Shown: in pieces, positions 3,408 through 5,925 of the stretch
How positions within the stretch are numbered: position 1 is the first letter of the stretch
Layout of the letters: every line of letters begins with the position of its first letter
Virus record (IMG/VR): IMGVR_UViG_3300010262_000127
DNA length: 5,925 bases
Origin: a virus
Taxonomy: Duplodnaviria; Heunggongvirae; Uroviricota; Caudoviricetes
Direction: 5' to 3' (one strand)
Notes under the pieces: generated by a model
What the model was told of the DNA's origin: nothing
What the model saw: the letters and a program-made list of their open reading frames with translations, nothing else
Databases searched by the model: none
Translations under genes and position numbers: made by a program

Positions 3408-3836
3408 ATGGAAACTGTATTGCATGCACTGAAAGCGATGGGAAAAGCCAATTCTGTTGAACTGGCGGCGCGGCTTGATATCAGCCGTGAAGAAGTTCTT
3501 AACGAACTGTGGGAACTCAAAAAAAATGGCGTTGTTGATAAAACGGGTCACACCTGGTTTCTGGCTGTCGAAGGTGAAGCCGGGGTAACCGAAGGGCAGG
3601 CACTACAACCTGAAGCGCCGGATGTGGTAACCGAAGAGGTCGCTCCAAAAGTTACCGCAGACATGATGGTTGAGTTTATCGGTCAGGATGGTGCTAAAAC
3701 GTGTGAGGAACTGGCGGGTAAGTTCGGCGTCAGTACTCGCAAGGTTGCTTCCACGCTGGCGGTGGTAACCGCAACGGGGCGGCTGGCACGCGTTAATCAG
3801 AACGGTAAATTTCGTTACTGCATGTCGGGGGGGTAA
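3408..3836 (+). CDS. winged-helix (DUF1627-like) prophage protein, probably the 5' portion of a gene interrupted by a frameshift
   Basis: SD GAGG about 10 nt before ATG 3408. The translation shows two winged-helix-like segments (ANSVELAARLDISREEVLNELWELKKNGVV and KTCEELAGKFGVSTRKVASTLAVVTATGRL). The ORF ends at TAA 3834-3836, immediately after a G7 run (3827-3833), and the +1 frame stays open from 3769 to 4179. Confidence 0.7.
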   Translation: METVLHALKAMGKANSVELAARLDISREEVLNELWELKKNGVVDKTGHTWFLAVEGEAGVTEGQALQPEAPDVVTEEVAPKVTADMMVEFIGQDGAKTCEELAGKFGVSTRKVASTLAVVTATGRLARVNQNGKFRYCMSGG

Positions 3837-4590: not shown

Positions 4591-5231
4591 GTGAATTAGC
4601 TATCAGGCTTCAATTGTCGCTGGCATTCGCATCAAAGGAGAATGAGATGACCACTTTTACAAAAGAGCAGTTAATCAGTCATGTTAGTGAAAATGTAAAG
4701 GCGATGAAATTTGCAGTAAAACAGACAGTATTCAAAAATTCTCTCGAGGCAATTGAGTTGGATTTAGCACTGGCCCTTGTTGCTCAGGCTTCGCTGGAAG
4801 CAGAGCCCGTGCTTTATATGAATCGATTTACCGGAAAGACATTCTCACTGGAAGAGCAACCCGGTGCTGATAAGGAACCGGAAATATACGTGCCGCTATA
4901 TGCTGCCCCGCCAGACAGCGCCGCCATGCTTCAGGCTGGAAACTTTCGGGAAAATAAGGGTTCGTCAACCAATAATTTTCGGGAAATCTCGGAAACGTCA
5001 ACCAACTATCCGGTAACTCCGGATGGTTGGATAAGCTGTAGTGAGCGAATGCCGGATGATGGTCAGCACGTAATTATTTTATGTGATGGCGCATTCGTTC
5101 TTTATGCGCAATATCGAGACGGTGAGTTTTTTGATGTAGTCCGTAATGGTGATGAATTTTTCGAAACACAGAGCCGCAATGTAACCGACTGGATGCCGCT
5201 ACCAGAACCGCCGCAGGAGGTGCGCCAATGA
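4587..5231 (+). CDS. DUF551-like phage protein (214 aa by the GTG start)
   Basis: The C-terminal region (GWISCSERMPDDGQHVIIL...VTDWMPLPEPP) matches the DUF551 signature common in lambdoid prophage early regions. The GTG 4587 start has AGGAGG 7 nt upstream and overlaps the upstream stop. An alternative in-frame start is ATG 4647 with AAAGGAG 6 nt upstream, giving 194 aa. Confidence 0.8.
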   Translation: MSELAIRLQLSLAFASKENEMTTFTKEQLISHVSENVKAMKFAVKQTVFKNSLEAIELDLALALVAQASLEAEPVLYMNRFTGKTFSLEEQPGADKEPEIYVPLYAAPPDSAAMLQAGNFRENKGSSTNNFREISETSTNYPVTPDGWISCSERMPDDGQHVIILCDGAFVLYAQYRDGEFFDVVRNGDEFFETQSRNVTDWMPLPEPPQEVRQ

Positions 5232-5311
5232 TCTGGCCTGAAGCCTTTGCAATTACAGGCGTTGCTATAGCTATTGATTTTTTAGTATATGTTATTTGTC
5301 GGTGGGGGTAA
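5228..5311 (+). CDS. small hydrophobic peptide (27 aa, MIWPEAFAITGVAIAIDFLVYVICRWG), not in the ORF track
   Basis: The ATG overlaps the upstream stop (ATGA at 5228-5231). AGGAGG (5215-5220) lies 7 nt upstream. The predicted peptide is a single hydrophobic helix with a C-terminal RWG. Confidence 0.4.
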   Translation: MIWPEAFAITGVAIAIDFLVYVICRWG

Positions 5312-5346
5312 AAACGTTCGCCGGGATTCACACCAAAGGAGGGAAT

Positions 5347-5451
5347 ATGTCGGATGATATTTCACTGGCAATGGAAGGTGCTCTGGCTGTTATTGCTGTT
5401 GTGGGCGTTTACTGCCTGGTTGTGTTTTTGATGGATCGACTAGGGAACTGA
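5347..5451 (+). CDS. small membrane peptide (34 aa, MSDDISLAMEGALAVIAVVGVYCLVVFLMDRLGN), not in the ORF track
   Basis: AAGGAGG (5336-5342) lies 4 nt before ATG 5347; stop is TGA 5449-5451. The peptide has an acidic N-terminus, one predicted transmembrane helix and a short polar C-terminus. Confidence 0.45.
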   Translation: MSDDISLAMEGALAVIAVVGVYCLVVFLMDRLGN

Positions 5452-5460
5452 ATTCATTAC

Positions 5461-5480
5461 GATATGGGAATTCCCATATC
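5461..5480. repeat. perfect 20-bp palindrome GATATGGGAATTCCCATATC
   Basis: The sequence equals its own reverse complement. It lies 10 nt after the small-ORF stop. No U-tract follows on either strand, so a protein-binding site is more likely than an intrinsic terminator. Confidence 0.6.
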
Positions 5481-5539
5481 GGGTAAAAACGGTTTGCGGT
5501 AAAGCGAGAGTTAAGTAGAATTGCTGCGGGTGCTTGAGG

Positions 5540-5575
5540 CTGTCTGCCTCGGGCATGCCACCGTAAGGCAGACAG
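5540..5575. repeat. inverted repeat (10-bp stem CTGTCTGCCT / AGGCAGACAG, 16-nt loop containing the palindrome GGCATGCC)
   Basis: Direct reading of complementary arms at 5540-5549 and 5566-5575, with an inner palindrome at 5552-5559. Neither strand has a U-tract after it. Confidence 0.4.
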
Positions 5576-5637
5576 AGAAAAGCCCCAGTTAACATTACGC
5601 GTCCTGCAAGACGCCTAACATTAATCTGAGGCCAATT

Positions 5638-5925
5638 TCATGCTAGACATATGTAGGTTAGCCTCTTACGCGCCGAAAGGCAAGGAGATGTATGGGTCCA
5701 CCACATATTGCAATTTTTATTCTCTTTTAAAATATATTCCACGGGCGTCATTAGTGCGAGCGCCTTGTGGGGTCTTTTGCTGTTATACAGCACCAGATAT
5801 TCCGCCAGCTTCTGGTTAAATAGCGCCAGATCTTCAAAGAGTAAAATCTCATTAAATTCAATAAACTGCTCTCTTAACGTCCGGTTAAAACGTTCACAGA
5901 TAGCGTTCATTTTTGGCGTGTAGGG
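5638..5925 (-). CDS. DDE transposase / integrase catalytic-core (rve-type) protein, C-terminal portion only; the gene continues beyond the window edge
   Basis: The minus-strand frame is open from the window end (..PLHAKMNAICERFNRTLREQ...YLVLYNSKRPHKALALMTPVEYILKE..) to the stop at 5638-5640. The motif ERFNRTL followed by YN..RPH.AL...TP.EY is characteristic of the C-terminus of rve-domain transposases (IS481-like by eye). The M reported at 5910 by the ORF track is an internal residue. Confidence 0.65.
   Translation of the reverse strand, partial: PYTPKMNAICERFNRTLREQFIEFNEILLFEDLALFNQKLAEYLVLYNSKRPHKALALMTPVEYILKENKNCNMWWTHTSPCLSARKRLTYICLA

Follow-up and report, generated by a model that had tools for sequence, protein, structure and literature searches.

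Do the few hundred nucleotides that separate a DUF551-domain gene from a hok/sok locus in this phage sequence encode small membrane proteins and, if so, are these proteins toxins? The window, by which we mean the whole analysed stretch of 5,925 nucleotides, contains two short plus-strand frames here, ORF1 and ORF2. A preliminary description had regarded them as tandem, unannotated genes for hydrophobic peptides, possibly small membrane toxins of the Hok, Ldr or TisB kind.

Two small frames between DUF551 and hok

ORF1 (5228-5311, plus strand) comprises 27 codons, from an ATG at 5228-5230 to a TAA stop at 5309-5311, and encodes the predicted single-helix membrane microprotein MIWPEAFAITGVAIAIDFLVYVICRWG (27 aa). 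Its Shine-Dalgarno (SD) sequence, AGGAGG at 5215-5220 on the plus strand, leaves a 7-nt spacer to the ATG, as had been described. Directly 5' lies a gene with a DUF551 domain (Pfam PF04448, E 6.7e-21), which in an identical locus (L001) is annotated as RefSeq CDS WP_000627694.1. With the RefSeq start it occupies 4647-5231 on the plus strand; the frame is open as far back as 4587, where there is a GTG. Its TGA stop at 5229-5231 is shared with the ORF1 start in an ATGA overlap, and its final codons, PPQEVRQ, contain the SD of ORF1, which therefore lies within the DUF551 coding sequence. The translational coupling proposed earlier is thus borne out as geometry and may be predicted from the sequence on that basis.

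ORF2 (5347-5451, plus strand) has 34 codons ending in a TGA stop at 5449-5451 and encodes MSDDISLAMEGALAVIAVVGVYCLVVFLMDRLGN (34 aa), likewise a predicted single-helix membrane microprotein, of the form that we call type A. The strong SD reported for it, AAGGAGG, is found at 5336-5342 on the plus strand, 4 nt from the ATG, and the centroid RNA fold leaves it unpaired; the coordinates given previously for this frame hold.

The two frames differ in their annotation, so that only half of the claim that they were unannotated stands. ORF1 is annotated neither in the RefSeq genomes nor in any reference phage examined, while ORF2 is an already annotated gene that has been reported as translated. The amino-acid sequence of ORF2 is identical to that of the RefSeq hypothetical protein WP_001278450.1, which is ECs_5710 of strain Sakai and also XECs145, and Sakai prophage Sp6 carries the same DUF551-ORF1-ORF2-hok context (identity with Sp6 was verified). 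Hücker et al., 2017 (PMC5597208) reported XECs145 as translated in RIBOseq of EHEC Sakai and as a predicted inner-membrane protein. In LB its transcriptome RPKM was 79.1 and its translatome RPKM 346.1, with a ribosomal coverage value of 4.35 and a coverage of 0.99; these reads come from uninduced cultures and may multi-map among prophage copies or stem from spontaneously induced cells. That study listed XECs145 as an N-terminally extended frame of 54 aa, whereas a start at the SD-proximal ATG yields 34 aa, the length that RefSeq also gives. It was also limited to ORFs of at least 30 aa, and ORF1 has 27. When N-terminally extended versions of the peptides were searched for in a database of 5.8 billion proteins, only Escherichia entries named 'hypothetical protein' were returned, with no Pfam domain. 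Neither the peptide strings nor the accession was found in the text of published papers, and no match came from the supplements of 'The Cryptic Bacterial Microproteome'.

Conservation and genomic context of ORF1 and ORF2

Roughly 17-18% of same-base shuffles stay open at this ORF length. Since an open frame alone is not rare, the case for coding had to be decided by comparative evidence, and this settled that each of the two frames is a real coding sequence that has been conserved, as the preliminary description had thought possible.

The ORF1 family has the consensus M-x-WPEAF...G.A.A.A...YSICRWG. When IMG/VR was scanned for the motif, the fetched loci yielded 126 ORF1 matches, representing 42 distinct peptides of one family. 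Every copy is 27 codons long, a length that the scan pattern itself fixed; length and some residues were set in advance in the scans for both ORFs. The start overlaps the upstream stop in 123 of the 126 copies, as ATGA in 103 and as TGATG or TAATG in 20. The genes found 5' of it belong to at least four unrelated families (Eaa/DUF551 among them), and a GGAGG- or GAGG-like motif is maintained at SD distance behind these unrelated genes. This combination of a conserved start/stop overlap and an SD inside the upstream coding sequence is that expected, on sequence, of a translationally coupled pair.

A tblastn search with ORF1 gave full-length matches in 92 phage records; those in BP-4795, VT2-Sakai, Av-05 and pPE4 are each an unannotated 27-codon ORF starting in an ATGA overlap. 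The carriers include lambdoid and Stx phages, phage-plasmids and lytic Vequintavirinae. Matches were also found in 181 plasmid records, and the one that was inspected has an unannotated 27-codon ORF with an ATGA overlap behind a DUF551 gene. Among 80 relatives of the DUF551 gene, 69 are followed by an ORF1-like frame of 27 codons. Scanning one genome per species returned only eight matches, three in Escherichia or Shigella, three in the unrelated genera Barnesiella, Lentzea and Oxalobacter, and two in other genera, on contigs just a few hundred bases long. Two chance pattern matches in unrelated genomes served as negative controls, and they showed stops or hydrophilic sequence, unlike ORF1. 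The ORF1-ORF2 segment is covered over at least 80% of the query in 633 of 5426 complete E. coli genomes (~12%).

Substitution rates say little about ORF1. Across 13 divergent representatives its pN/pS was 0.67 (95% CI 0.51-0.87), not different from the 0.62 of frame +1, so dN/dS is too weak to separate the frames, and allele counts per codon position were uninformative as well. In place of these measures we used a test of block boundaries and open frames on 42 context representatives whose mutual identity is below 80%. DNA identity was 0.80 in ORF1 codons 8-25, and fell to 0.26-0.30 directly past the stop and to 0.32-0.53 upstream, the conserved block being bounded by the ORF1 ATG and the ORF1 stop. 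Frame 0 was open in all 42 representatives, and both alternative frames were closed in all 42. Because dN/dS is weak, it is the boundaries, the length, the motif and the coupling that carry the case for ORF1; judged from these sequence comparisons, ORF1 is a widespread conserved family that annotation nearly always misses.

The ORF2 family comprises two types, A and B, which have their C-terminal half in common. Within types, pN/pS was 0.27-0.30 in frame, compared with 0.44-0.48 and 1.1-1.5 in the other frames; variation by codon position followed the order 3>1>2, and entropy was 0.44 in the core versus 0.89 and 0.76 in the flanks. Upstream of type-B ORF2, a sigma-70-like promoter (TTGAAN/TTGCTG-17-CATATT) is conserved in 9 of 11 divergent contexts. 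For type A, the form in the window, a promoter scan recognised no promoter of its own within the conserved unit.

Just downstream of ORF2, and not mentioned in the preliminary description, is a bona fide hok/sok locus, interrupted by an IS481-family element. Rfam RF01794 matches 5528-5694 (109.4 bits, E 5.4e-25), 3' of both ORFs, and the hok mRNA leader with its sok-complementary region occupies 5528-5688 on the plus strand, starting 77 nt after ORF2. The mok start lies at 5640 and the hok SD, AAGGAGA, at 5682-5688. As far as 5688 this leader has the same sequence as the intact hokD locus of E. coli O103:H2 12009. A break in the alignment follows at 5688/5689, where the end of the insertion sequence (5689-5925, minus strand) cuts mok and parts the hokD coding sequence from its leader; identical copies of the element are annotated as an IS481 family transposase. 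We place a putative hok promoter at 5493-5521 on the plus strand (-35 TTTGCG, 17-nt spacer, -10 TAGAAT). A simple promoter scan did not flag it; its sequence is conserved directly 5' of the hok mRNA start in all arrangements. Two other candidates were set aside: a degenerate second hok locus under ORF2, for which there was no second Rfam match on the plus strand, and a speF-leader match at 3559-3664, which at E 0.11 and below the gathering score was treated as chance.

ORF2 sits within a 175-nt segment between two 11-bp direct repeats, GGGTAAAAACG, at 5306-5316 (spanning the ORF1 stop) and at 5481-5491. Loci that lack the segment have a single copy of GGGTAAAAACG, and there ORF1 abuts the hok promoter directly. 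ORF2 is thus, like a moron, an extra unit whose two neighbours adjoin each other in related genomes. A perfect 22-bp palindrome, CGATATGGGAATTCCCATATCG (5460-5481), follows ORF2; it would form a hairpin and has no U-tract. It is retained in some hok upstream contexts in which ORF2 has been replaced, and it could mark the end of the cassette or be a protein-binding site.

The view of the two frames as a tandem unit did not survive this comparison, as ORF1 goes with the preceding early gene and ORF2 with the downstream hok locus. Homology between the two peptides was considered and rejected, BLASTP returning no alignment.

The toxin question and other readings

Each peptide has one predicted hydrophobic helix long enough to span a bilayer, as was first suggested, and on this prediction both are single-pass membrane microproteins. 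The best 17-residue Kyte-Doolittle means are 2.32 for ORF1 and 2.95 for ORF2 (3.22 for HokD), and AlphaFold2, applied to a natural ORF1-ORF2 fusion (P0051), agrees, with long helices at 3-34 and 41-72 (mean pLDDT 71). Such 74-aa fusions were rejected as evidence for an interaction between the two peptides; they are rare, and the 125 local copies include no example.

Overexpression of small hydrophobic peptides is often toxic, and one or both of these could be type I-like toxins that depolarise the inner membrane and are kept under control by an antisense RNA that has escaped recognition. Their size and hydrophobicity are within the type I range, a real hok/sok locus adjoins them, and two weak minus-strand sigma-70-like matches, running from 5371 to 5344 and from 5312 to 5284, could drive antisense RNAs. 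We nevertheless consider this unlikely, and the specific resemblance to Hok, Ldr or TisB proposed at the outset was not upheld by similarity searches. Neither peptide matched a toxin family in Pfam or NCBIfam at E<=1; with PHROG and PADLOC added, the only matches were chance-level ones to SecE, Cmr5 (the sole match from PADLOC), phrog_38566 and phrog_4612. ORF2 and HokD gave no BLASTP alignment at E<=100. Members of Hok/Gef PF01848 have about 50 aa, an N-terminal helix and a periplasmic domain with a conserved Cys; the window peptides, at 27 and 34 aa, did not match PF01848 at E<=1. Rfam detected no RNA family over 5212-5451, hence neither an antitoxin RNA nor a hok-type locus at the ORFs themselves. 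Promoter-like matches were not clearly above expectation (three found, against 0.9 +/- 1.2 in shuffles), and the candidate from 5312 to 5284 differs in sequence in the commonest ORF1 variant. The SD of ORF2 is strong and, in the predicted fold, not sequestered, arguing against a translational hold-off in the type I style, and the ribosomal coverage noted above was obtained from a growing culture. ORF1 is embedded in an operon and coupled to the gene of a 214-aa protein, unlike stand-alone toxin mRNAs. Type I toxins typically carry positively charged residues; the window peptides lack these, with net charges of -1 and -3. Neither ORF1 nor ORF2 is in a known toxin family.

ORF2 might instead be a working part of the hok/sok cassette, either as a cis element or as a partner or modulator of the Hok protein. 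In the cis form of this explanation, translation of ORF2, or its DNA, would set the activity of the hok promoter or insulate it from read-through. The positional link is close: in 110 of ~116 unique contexts the ORF2 stop precedes the 5' end of the hok mRNA by a fixed distance of 44 or 77-78 nt, and ORF2 is essentially never met away from hok. Where the remainder has been lost, 3' remnants of ORF2 and the palindrome persist beside hok. In other hok loci ORF1 takes the equivalent place, its stop 43 nt from the hok start; in Sp5, for example, 43 nt separate the end of the ORF1 homologue from the start of the hokW transcript. However, when the unique contexts upstream of close HokD relatives are compared, some two thirds have an intact hok and no ORF2. 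It is often deleted or truncated beside an intact hok, so that any role it has must be dispensable for hok. Purifying selection on the peptide speaks against a purely cis-acting role, and the published hok work that was searched (reviews and papers) mentions neither a third protein nor upstream ORFs. ORF2 is also intact in the window although hok is disrupted, a weak argument, as the IS insertion may be recent. Taken together we find a working part in the cassette quite doubtful. We would give equally little credence to a bolder version in which both ORFs encode hok-promoter-proximal peptides that modulate Hok, or a membrane target shared with it, during induction, the ORF1 family being obligately co-translated with variable early genes and placed repeatedly directly upstream of hok/sok. 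If this were true, a toxin system whose control has been ascribed to RNA only would gain a protein layer.

That both frames are non-functional, as chance spacer ORFs or decaying relics, is very improbable. Their openness in a sizeable share of shuffles, the weak dN/dS of ORF1 and sporadic frameshifted or fused versions (P0050, P0051, P0055; L144) could be read this way. However, in the 42 contexts the conserved block begins and ends exactly where ORF1 does, the 27 codons are invariant and start/stop coupling is retained behind unrelated genes, none of the 125 local copies has the frameshift, and ORF2 has both a low pN/pS and ribosome footprints. Finally, we rejected as scarcely credible a programmed -1 ribosomal frameshift that would add ORF1 as a membrane anchor to the DUF551 protein, since, although ORF1 overlaps the DUF551 stop and is shifted by -1 from the DUF551 frame, inspection of the sequence before the junction revealed no slippery heptamer, the ATG and SD of ORF1 are conserved, and the module is found behind at least four unrelated genes in ATGA or TGATG geometry.

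Proposed role and comparison with known systems

We therefore favour, as probable though well short of certain, the reading that ORF1 and ORF2 encode two unrelated and independently mobile single-helix inner-membrane microproteins of temperate coliphages, acting as non-lethal accessory factors. ORF1 is a discrete 84-nt module whose ATG is set onto the stop of whichever early gene precedes it. Ribosomes that finish the upstream gene would re-initiate on ORF1, and in consequence any translation of the phage early operon would also yield the peptide. Both peptides carry conserved residues at the two membrane interfaces (WPEAF and YSICRWG in ORF1, YCL..LMDRL in ORF2), and the ORF1 helix has a face of small residues, G11/A13/A15/A17. 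Because of these interface residues and this small-residue face, we suggest, as the weakest step of the proposal, that both might be moron-type membrane factors that act by helix-helix contact, either among their own copies or with a membrane protein of the host or the phage. Superinfection exclusion and modulation of membrane proteins are examples of what they might do, rather than forming pores in the manner of Hok-like type I toxins. From their sequences, ORF1 and ORF2 are at present ordinary-looking accessory microproteins.

Recognition of ORF1 closes a systematic gap in annotation, as this 84-nt gene is missing from the annotation of the reference Stx phages VT2-Sakai (933W-type) and BP-4795, of phage-plasmids and of Vequintavirinae. 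It also offers a clean natural case of a fixed small gene whose stop/start coupling is retained although one upstream partner takes the place of another. ORF2, in turn, means that a subset of prophage hok/sok loci bears a translated membrane peptide at the hok promoter, and studies that clone or delete 'hok-sok' fragments should reckon with it. Should either peptide have an effect on membrane physiology or on superinfection, this would bear on the biology of EHEC prophages.

Several known systems invite comparison. Coupled ATGA or TGATG pairs are common in phage operons, and the overlap and internal SD of ORF1 are a textbook arrangement; unlike in ordinary pairs, it is the downstream partner that is constant and the upstream gene that varies, the junction being kept or recreated each time. 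The products of hokD and hokW, which are paired with Sok, are likewise small single-helix membrane peptides encoded in the same prophages, physically adjacent to ORF2. ORF1 and ORF2, however, are dissimilar to them in sequence, shorter and devoid of a periplasmic domain, and at the two frames we detected no mok-like overlapping frame, fold-back mRNA or antisense RNA such as hok loci possess. With Ldr, TisB, Ibs, ShoB, DinQ and Zor they share the length class (~20-35 aa) and a single hydrophobic helix. They differ in being acidic or neutral and in having no family match at E<=1; in addition, ORF1 is coupled inside an operon, and Rfam found no partner sRNA of the kind that accompanies Ldr/TisB-type toxins. 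Phage morons and small membrane proteins expressed in the lysogen, such as HK97 gp15, are a further case. ORF2 resembles them in looking like an inserted extra unit, one that gave ribosome footprints in lysogen cultures, perhaps from the repressed prophage, and that in type B has a predicted promoter of its own; it differs from them in lacking homology and in being followed by a hairpin without a U-tract, hence by no canonical terminator. AcrZ, MgrB, MgtS and KdpF are bacterial regulatory membrane microproteins of ~30-50 aa with a single helix. ORF1 and ORF2 have no homology to these and differ in being phage-borne and mobile, but they share with them a pattern of conserved residues at the membrane interfaces and along one face of the helix, as for binding a partner.

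Two short frames in a Rac-like early region

The window corresponds to the early-right part of a lambdoid prophage of Rac-like type, with genes in the order racR-like repressor (minus strand), cro-like, YdaT-like, O-like, DnaC-like, DUF1627, DUF977 and DUF551. Up to position 5688 it matches E. coli O103:H2 strain 12009 base for base. Of 5426 complete E. coli genomes, 1166 carry some part of a 371-nt stretch around the two frames discussed here (633 at ≥80% coverage). A weak Rfam match to the speF leader falls within the DUF1627 gene, at 3559-3664; it scores 19 bits where the gathering score is 37 (E 0.11) and is almost certainly due to chance.

The preliminary description had noted two tandem small hydrophobic-peptide ORFs with strong Shine-Dalgarno (SD) sites, and all its coordinates were correct when read from the sequence. 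ORF1 (27 codons, ATG at 5228 to 5311) has AGGAGG (5215-5220) 7 nt upstream, while ORF2 (34 codons, ATG at 5347 to 5451) has AAGGAGG (5336-5342) 4 nt before its ATG, in a site left unpaired in the predicted RNA fold. The expected single helix per peptide was borne out: each contains one strongly hydrophobic 17-residue stretch (Kyte-Doolittle means 2.32 for ORF1 and 2.95 for ORF2), and each forms one long helix in an AlphaFold2 model of a natural ORF1-ORF2 fusion protein. The peptides do not resemble each other. Comparison of their contexts established them as two separate genes that move independently, each encoding a single-helix peptide.

Conservation, coupling and distribution of ORF1

The boundaries of conservation argue most strongly for ORF1 as a gene. 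In 42 representative contexts, which share less than 80% identity across 264 nt, pairwise identity averages 0.80 for codons 8-25, a stretch that our search pattern left unconstrained. It falls to 0.26-0.30 (random level) from the first base past the stop, and upstream of the ORF it is 0.32-0.53. All 42 have frame 0 open and stops in both other frames. A bias towards synonymous change, suggested earlier as a check, was found in frame for ORF2 (pN/pS 0.27-0.30 within its two types, compared with 0.44-0.48 and 1.1-1.5 for the two alternative frames), but for ORF1 dN/dS is only weakly supportive (0.51 over all pairs; 0.67, CI 0.51-0.87, over 13 divergent representatives, with frame +1 no different), as expected for a transmembrane core in which hydrophobicity alone matters. 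The case made here for ORF1 is not built on this ratio.

The proposed coupling to the DUF551 gene (4647-5231, plus strand) is physical, since the ORF1 start overlaps the DUF551 stop as ATGA. Stop/start overlap recurs in 123 of the 126 matches listed (ATGA in 103, TGATG or TAATG in 20), with a GGAGG-like motif 7-10 nt 5' of ORF1 copies. DUF551 precedes ORF1 in the window and BP-4795, and another gene does so in VT2-Sakai (orf75), Av-05 and pPE4; by clustering, the upstream genes fall into at least four unrelated families. Conversely, an ORF1-like 27-codon ORF comes next in 69 of 80 relatives of the window DUF551 protein, and in the remainder a different gene is coupled at the same CAGGAGGTG...TGATG junction. 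The DUF551 3' junction thus behaves, as far as sequence comparison can tell, like a conserved ‘coupling socket’ behind which one gene can be exchanged for another, and termination-reinitiation would yield ORF1 whenever the early operon is translated. At this junction the DUF551 C-terminus PEPPQEV(R/K/N) is encoded by CCGCCGCAGGAGGTG (window 5200-5231; loci L172, L198, L201, L204 and L206), which serves also as SD for the next gene, always with stop/start overlap; the genes that follow are ORF1 or those for a 92-95-aa membrane protein, a 190-aa exonuclease-like protein or a 131-aa coiled-coil protein.

By tblastn the 27-aa peptide matched 92 phage records, 90 of them over at least 80% of its length, including the lytic Vequintavirinae phage Av-05. 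Every match in BP-4795, VT2-Sakai, Av-05 and pPE4 is a 27-codon ORF whose ATG overlaps the preceding stop. A degenerate motif scan of IMG/VR gave, among the matches listed in the fetched loci, at least 126 matches and at least 42 distinct peptides, obviously one family, with the consensus M-(T/N/S/I)-WPEAF-..-(V)G-.A.A.A....-YSICRWG; as a negative control, two sequences that fit the pattern by chance, from unrelated bacterial genomes, were hydrophilic or stop-containing. Members of the family are also present in 181 plasmid records, for the most part non-mobilizable replicons of ~80-130 kb from E. coli, Salmonella and Klebsiella; in the one examined, pRM10386-1, the 27-codon ORF lies unannotated behind a DUF551 gene with an ATGA overlap.

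Both frames had been thought absent from annotation. This held for ORF1, which has no CDS in BP-4795, VT2-Sakai, Av-05 or pPE4, but not for ORF2 (RefSeq WP_001278450.1). Searches of Pfam, NCBIfam, PHROG and PADLOC returned no family for ORF1, and in a database of 5.8 billion proteins its family amounts to a handful of Escherichia ‘hypothetical proteins’, most of them mis-started at 43-47 aa. Rare 74-aa entries (P0050, P0051 and P0055) are in-frame ORF1-ORF2 fusions, arising from a 1-nt change in the GGGGG run at the ORF1 stop (window 5303-5307) or a frameshift within ORF1; the fusion change is absent from all 125 copies in the fetched loci, and the fusions are probably sporadic mutants or homopolymer sequencing errors.

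ORF2 and the hok neighbourhood

ORF2 is an already known, annotated and translated hypothetical protein. The window peptides are identical to those of Sakai prophage Sp6, where ORF2 is ECs_5710. Ribosome profiling, proposed earlier as a check, has in effect been published for Sakai lysogen cultures: XECs145, the ORF2 frame plus a 20-codon 5' extension, had a transcriptome RPKM of 79.1, a translatome RPKM of 346.1, a ribosomal coverage value of 4.35 and coverage of 0.99 in LB, compared with 121, 150 and 1.14 for the first three in the BHI control, and its translation was nearly off in cold and osmotic stress (Hücker et al., 2017, PMC5597208). The authors classed it as ‘real’ and predicted an inner-membrane protein; their 30-aa cut-off left out ORF1 (PMC5597208).

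A motif scan divided the ORF2 family into two types with a common C-terminal half (...YCL.V.LMD(R/H)L(G/S)(N/D)): type A, the window's form, of 34 aa, and type B, of 29 aa, with a GTG start 5-6 nt after AGGAG(G). The ORF2 core is far better conserved than both flanks, and variation by codon position runs 3>1>2. In 9 of 11 divergent type-B contexts TTGAAN/TTGCTG-17 nt-CATATT occurs at -66 to -38 with a variable spacer sequence, ~30 nt upstream of the SD (e.g. phage Tritos, L006, ~2450-2480, and HannyBb, L007), an apparent phylogenetic footprint of a sigma-70-like promoter of its own. No such element was found in the conserved unit of type A, which begins ~30 nt before the ATG. Neither the Tritos nor the HannyBb record annotates type-B ORF2 on its own strand, and in HannyBb a minus-strand hypothetical CDS overlies it.

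ORF2 lies at the upstream edge of the hok promoter. In the window a hokD-type hok/sok locus starts 77 nt past ORF2 at 5528 (mok ATG 5640; Rfam sok RF01794, 5528-5694, 109 bits), with its leader at 5528-5688 on the plus strand. Directly after the hok SD AAGGAGA, at 5688/5689, it is broken by an insertion sequence of the IS481 family (to 5925), whose transposase is encoded on the minus strand, and the Hok coding sequence is severed from its leader in the window strain. In 110 of ~116 unique contexts the ORF2 stop lies upstream of the conserved hok mRNA 5' end, by 44 nt for type B and by 77-78 nt for type A; ORF1 is absent from 64 of those 110.

Two 11-bp direct repeats of GGGTAAAAACG (5306-5316 and 5481-5491) bracket a 175-nt segment that contains the SD, ORF2 and a perfect 22-bp palindrome, while loci in which ORF1 abuts hok (ORF1 stop, 43 nt, hok 5' end) have a single copy of this motif, within ...TAAaaacggtttgcgg...; the segment looks like an insertion. 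The sequence past each repeat is also similar (TTCGCCGGG and GTTTGCGG), which suggests duplication or recombination involving sequence close to the hok promoter more than a classical target-site duplication. The palindrome, CGATATGGGAATTCCCATATCG (5460-5481), comes after ORF2 and before the hok -35, and may form a hairpin or serve as binding site for a dimeric protein. It is kept in some hok contexts that have lost ORF2, and the variant CGATGCGGGACTTCCCACATCG (L330) shows a single compensatory change of a pair (A-T to G-C) together with one mismatch.

The hok mRNA starts within ~320 nt downstream of ORF1 in 71 of 121 unique contexts, 24 of which have the ORF1 stop 43 nt from the hok 5' end (e.g. 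L013, of the 157-nt class), a spacing close to the 44 nt of type-B ORF2. Among these is VT2-Sakai/Sp5 (L003, 1201-1284), where ORF1 sits beside hokW-sokW, an experimentally studied locus. This recurrent adjacency is either functional or a mere reflection of module boundaries.

Possible roles and comparison with known systems

Both peptides would insert into the inner membrane, and ORF2 would be a moron-like accessory gene. Conserved residues at both interfaces, with a small-residue face G11/A13/A15/A17 in ORF1, point to specific helix-helix contacts as a possible mode of action. Exclusion or membrane-protein modulation is a plausible role for both, as a guess with modest support.

That the peptides are type I-like toxins, as their size and composition had suggested, we consider unlikely. 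ORF1 is operon-embedded and coupled, the SD of ORF2 is unpaired and both peptides are acidic or neutral, an anatomy that does not fit a type I toxin-antitoxin locus. The antisense RNA envisaged earlier did not emerge: Rfam gives the hok/sok leader at 5528-5694 and no RNA over ORF1 or ORF2, and minus-strand promoter-like matches were not clearly above shuffle expectation. Slightly less probable still, ORF2 would be a functional or cis-acting part of the hok cassette, consistent with its fixed spacing to hok. Among close HokD relatives ORF2 is kept in only ~17-20 of 62 unique upstream contexts, with others retaining just its last codons or the palindrome, so it is dispensable for hok. Two loci (L182 and L183, ~2320-2480) have an intact type-A ORF2 and a variant palindrome, with the hok leader deleted and a degenerate hok start left; ORF2 can thus outlive hok, as hok can outlive ORF2. 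It is very improbable that the frames are non-functional. Frames of this size stay open in ~17-18% of shuffles and are not improbable by themselves, so the verdict rests on the comparative data. We give hardly any credence to ORF1 as a membrane anchor added to DUF551 by frameshift, a reading that the ATGA overlap might invite and that sits poorly with its varied upstream partners.

The preferred reading, two independent membrane-peptide genes, is a solid finding at the level of annotation and describes no new kind of system. The literature searched names neither peptide. In sequence neither is similar to Hok, to Ldr or TisB, with which they had been compared, or to any other catalogued family. 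Within the general class of phage membrane microproteins ORF1 is a new member, essentially unannotated, and its signature is unusually clean: length and coupling are fixed and the upstream partner varies.
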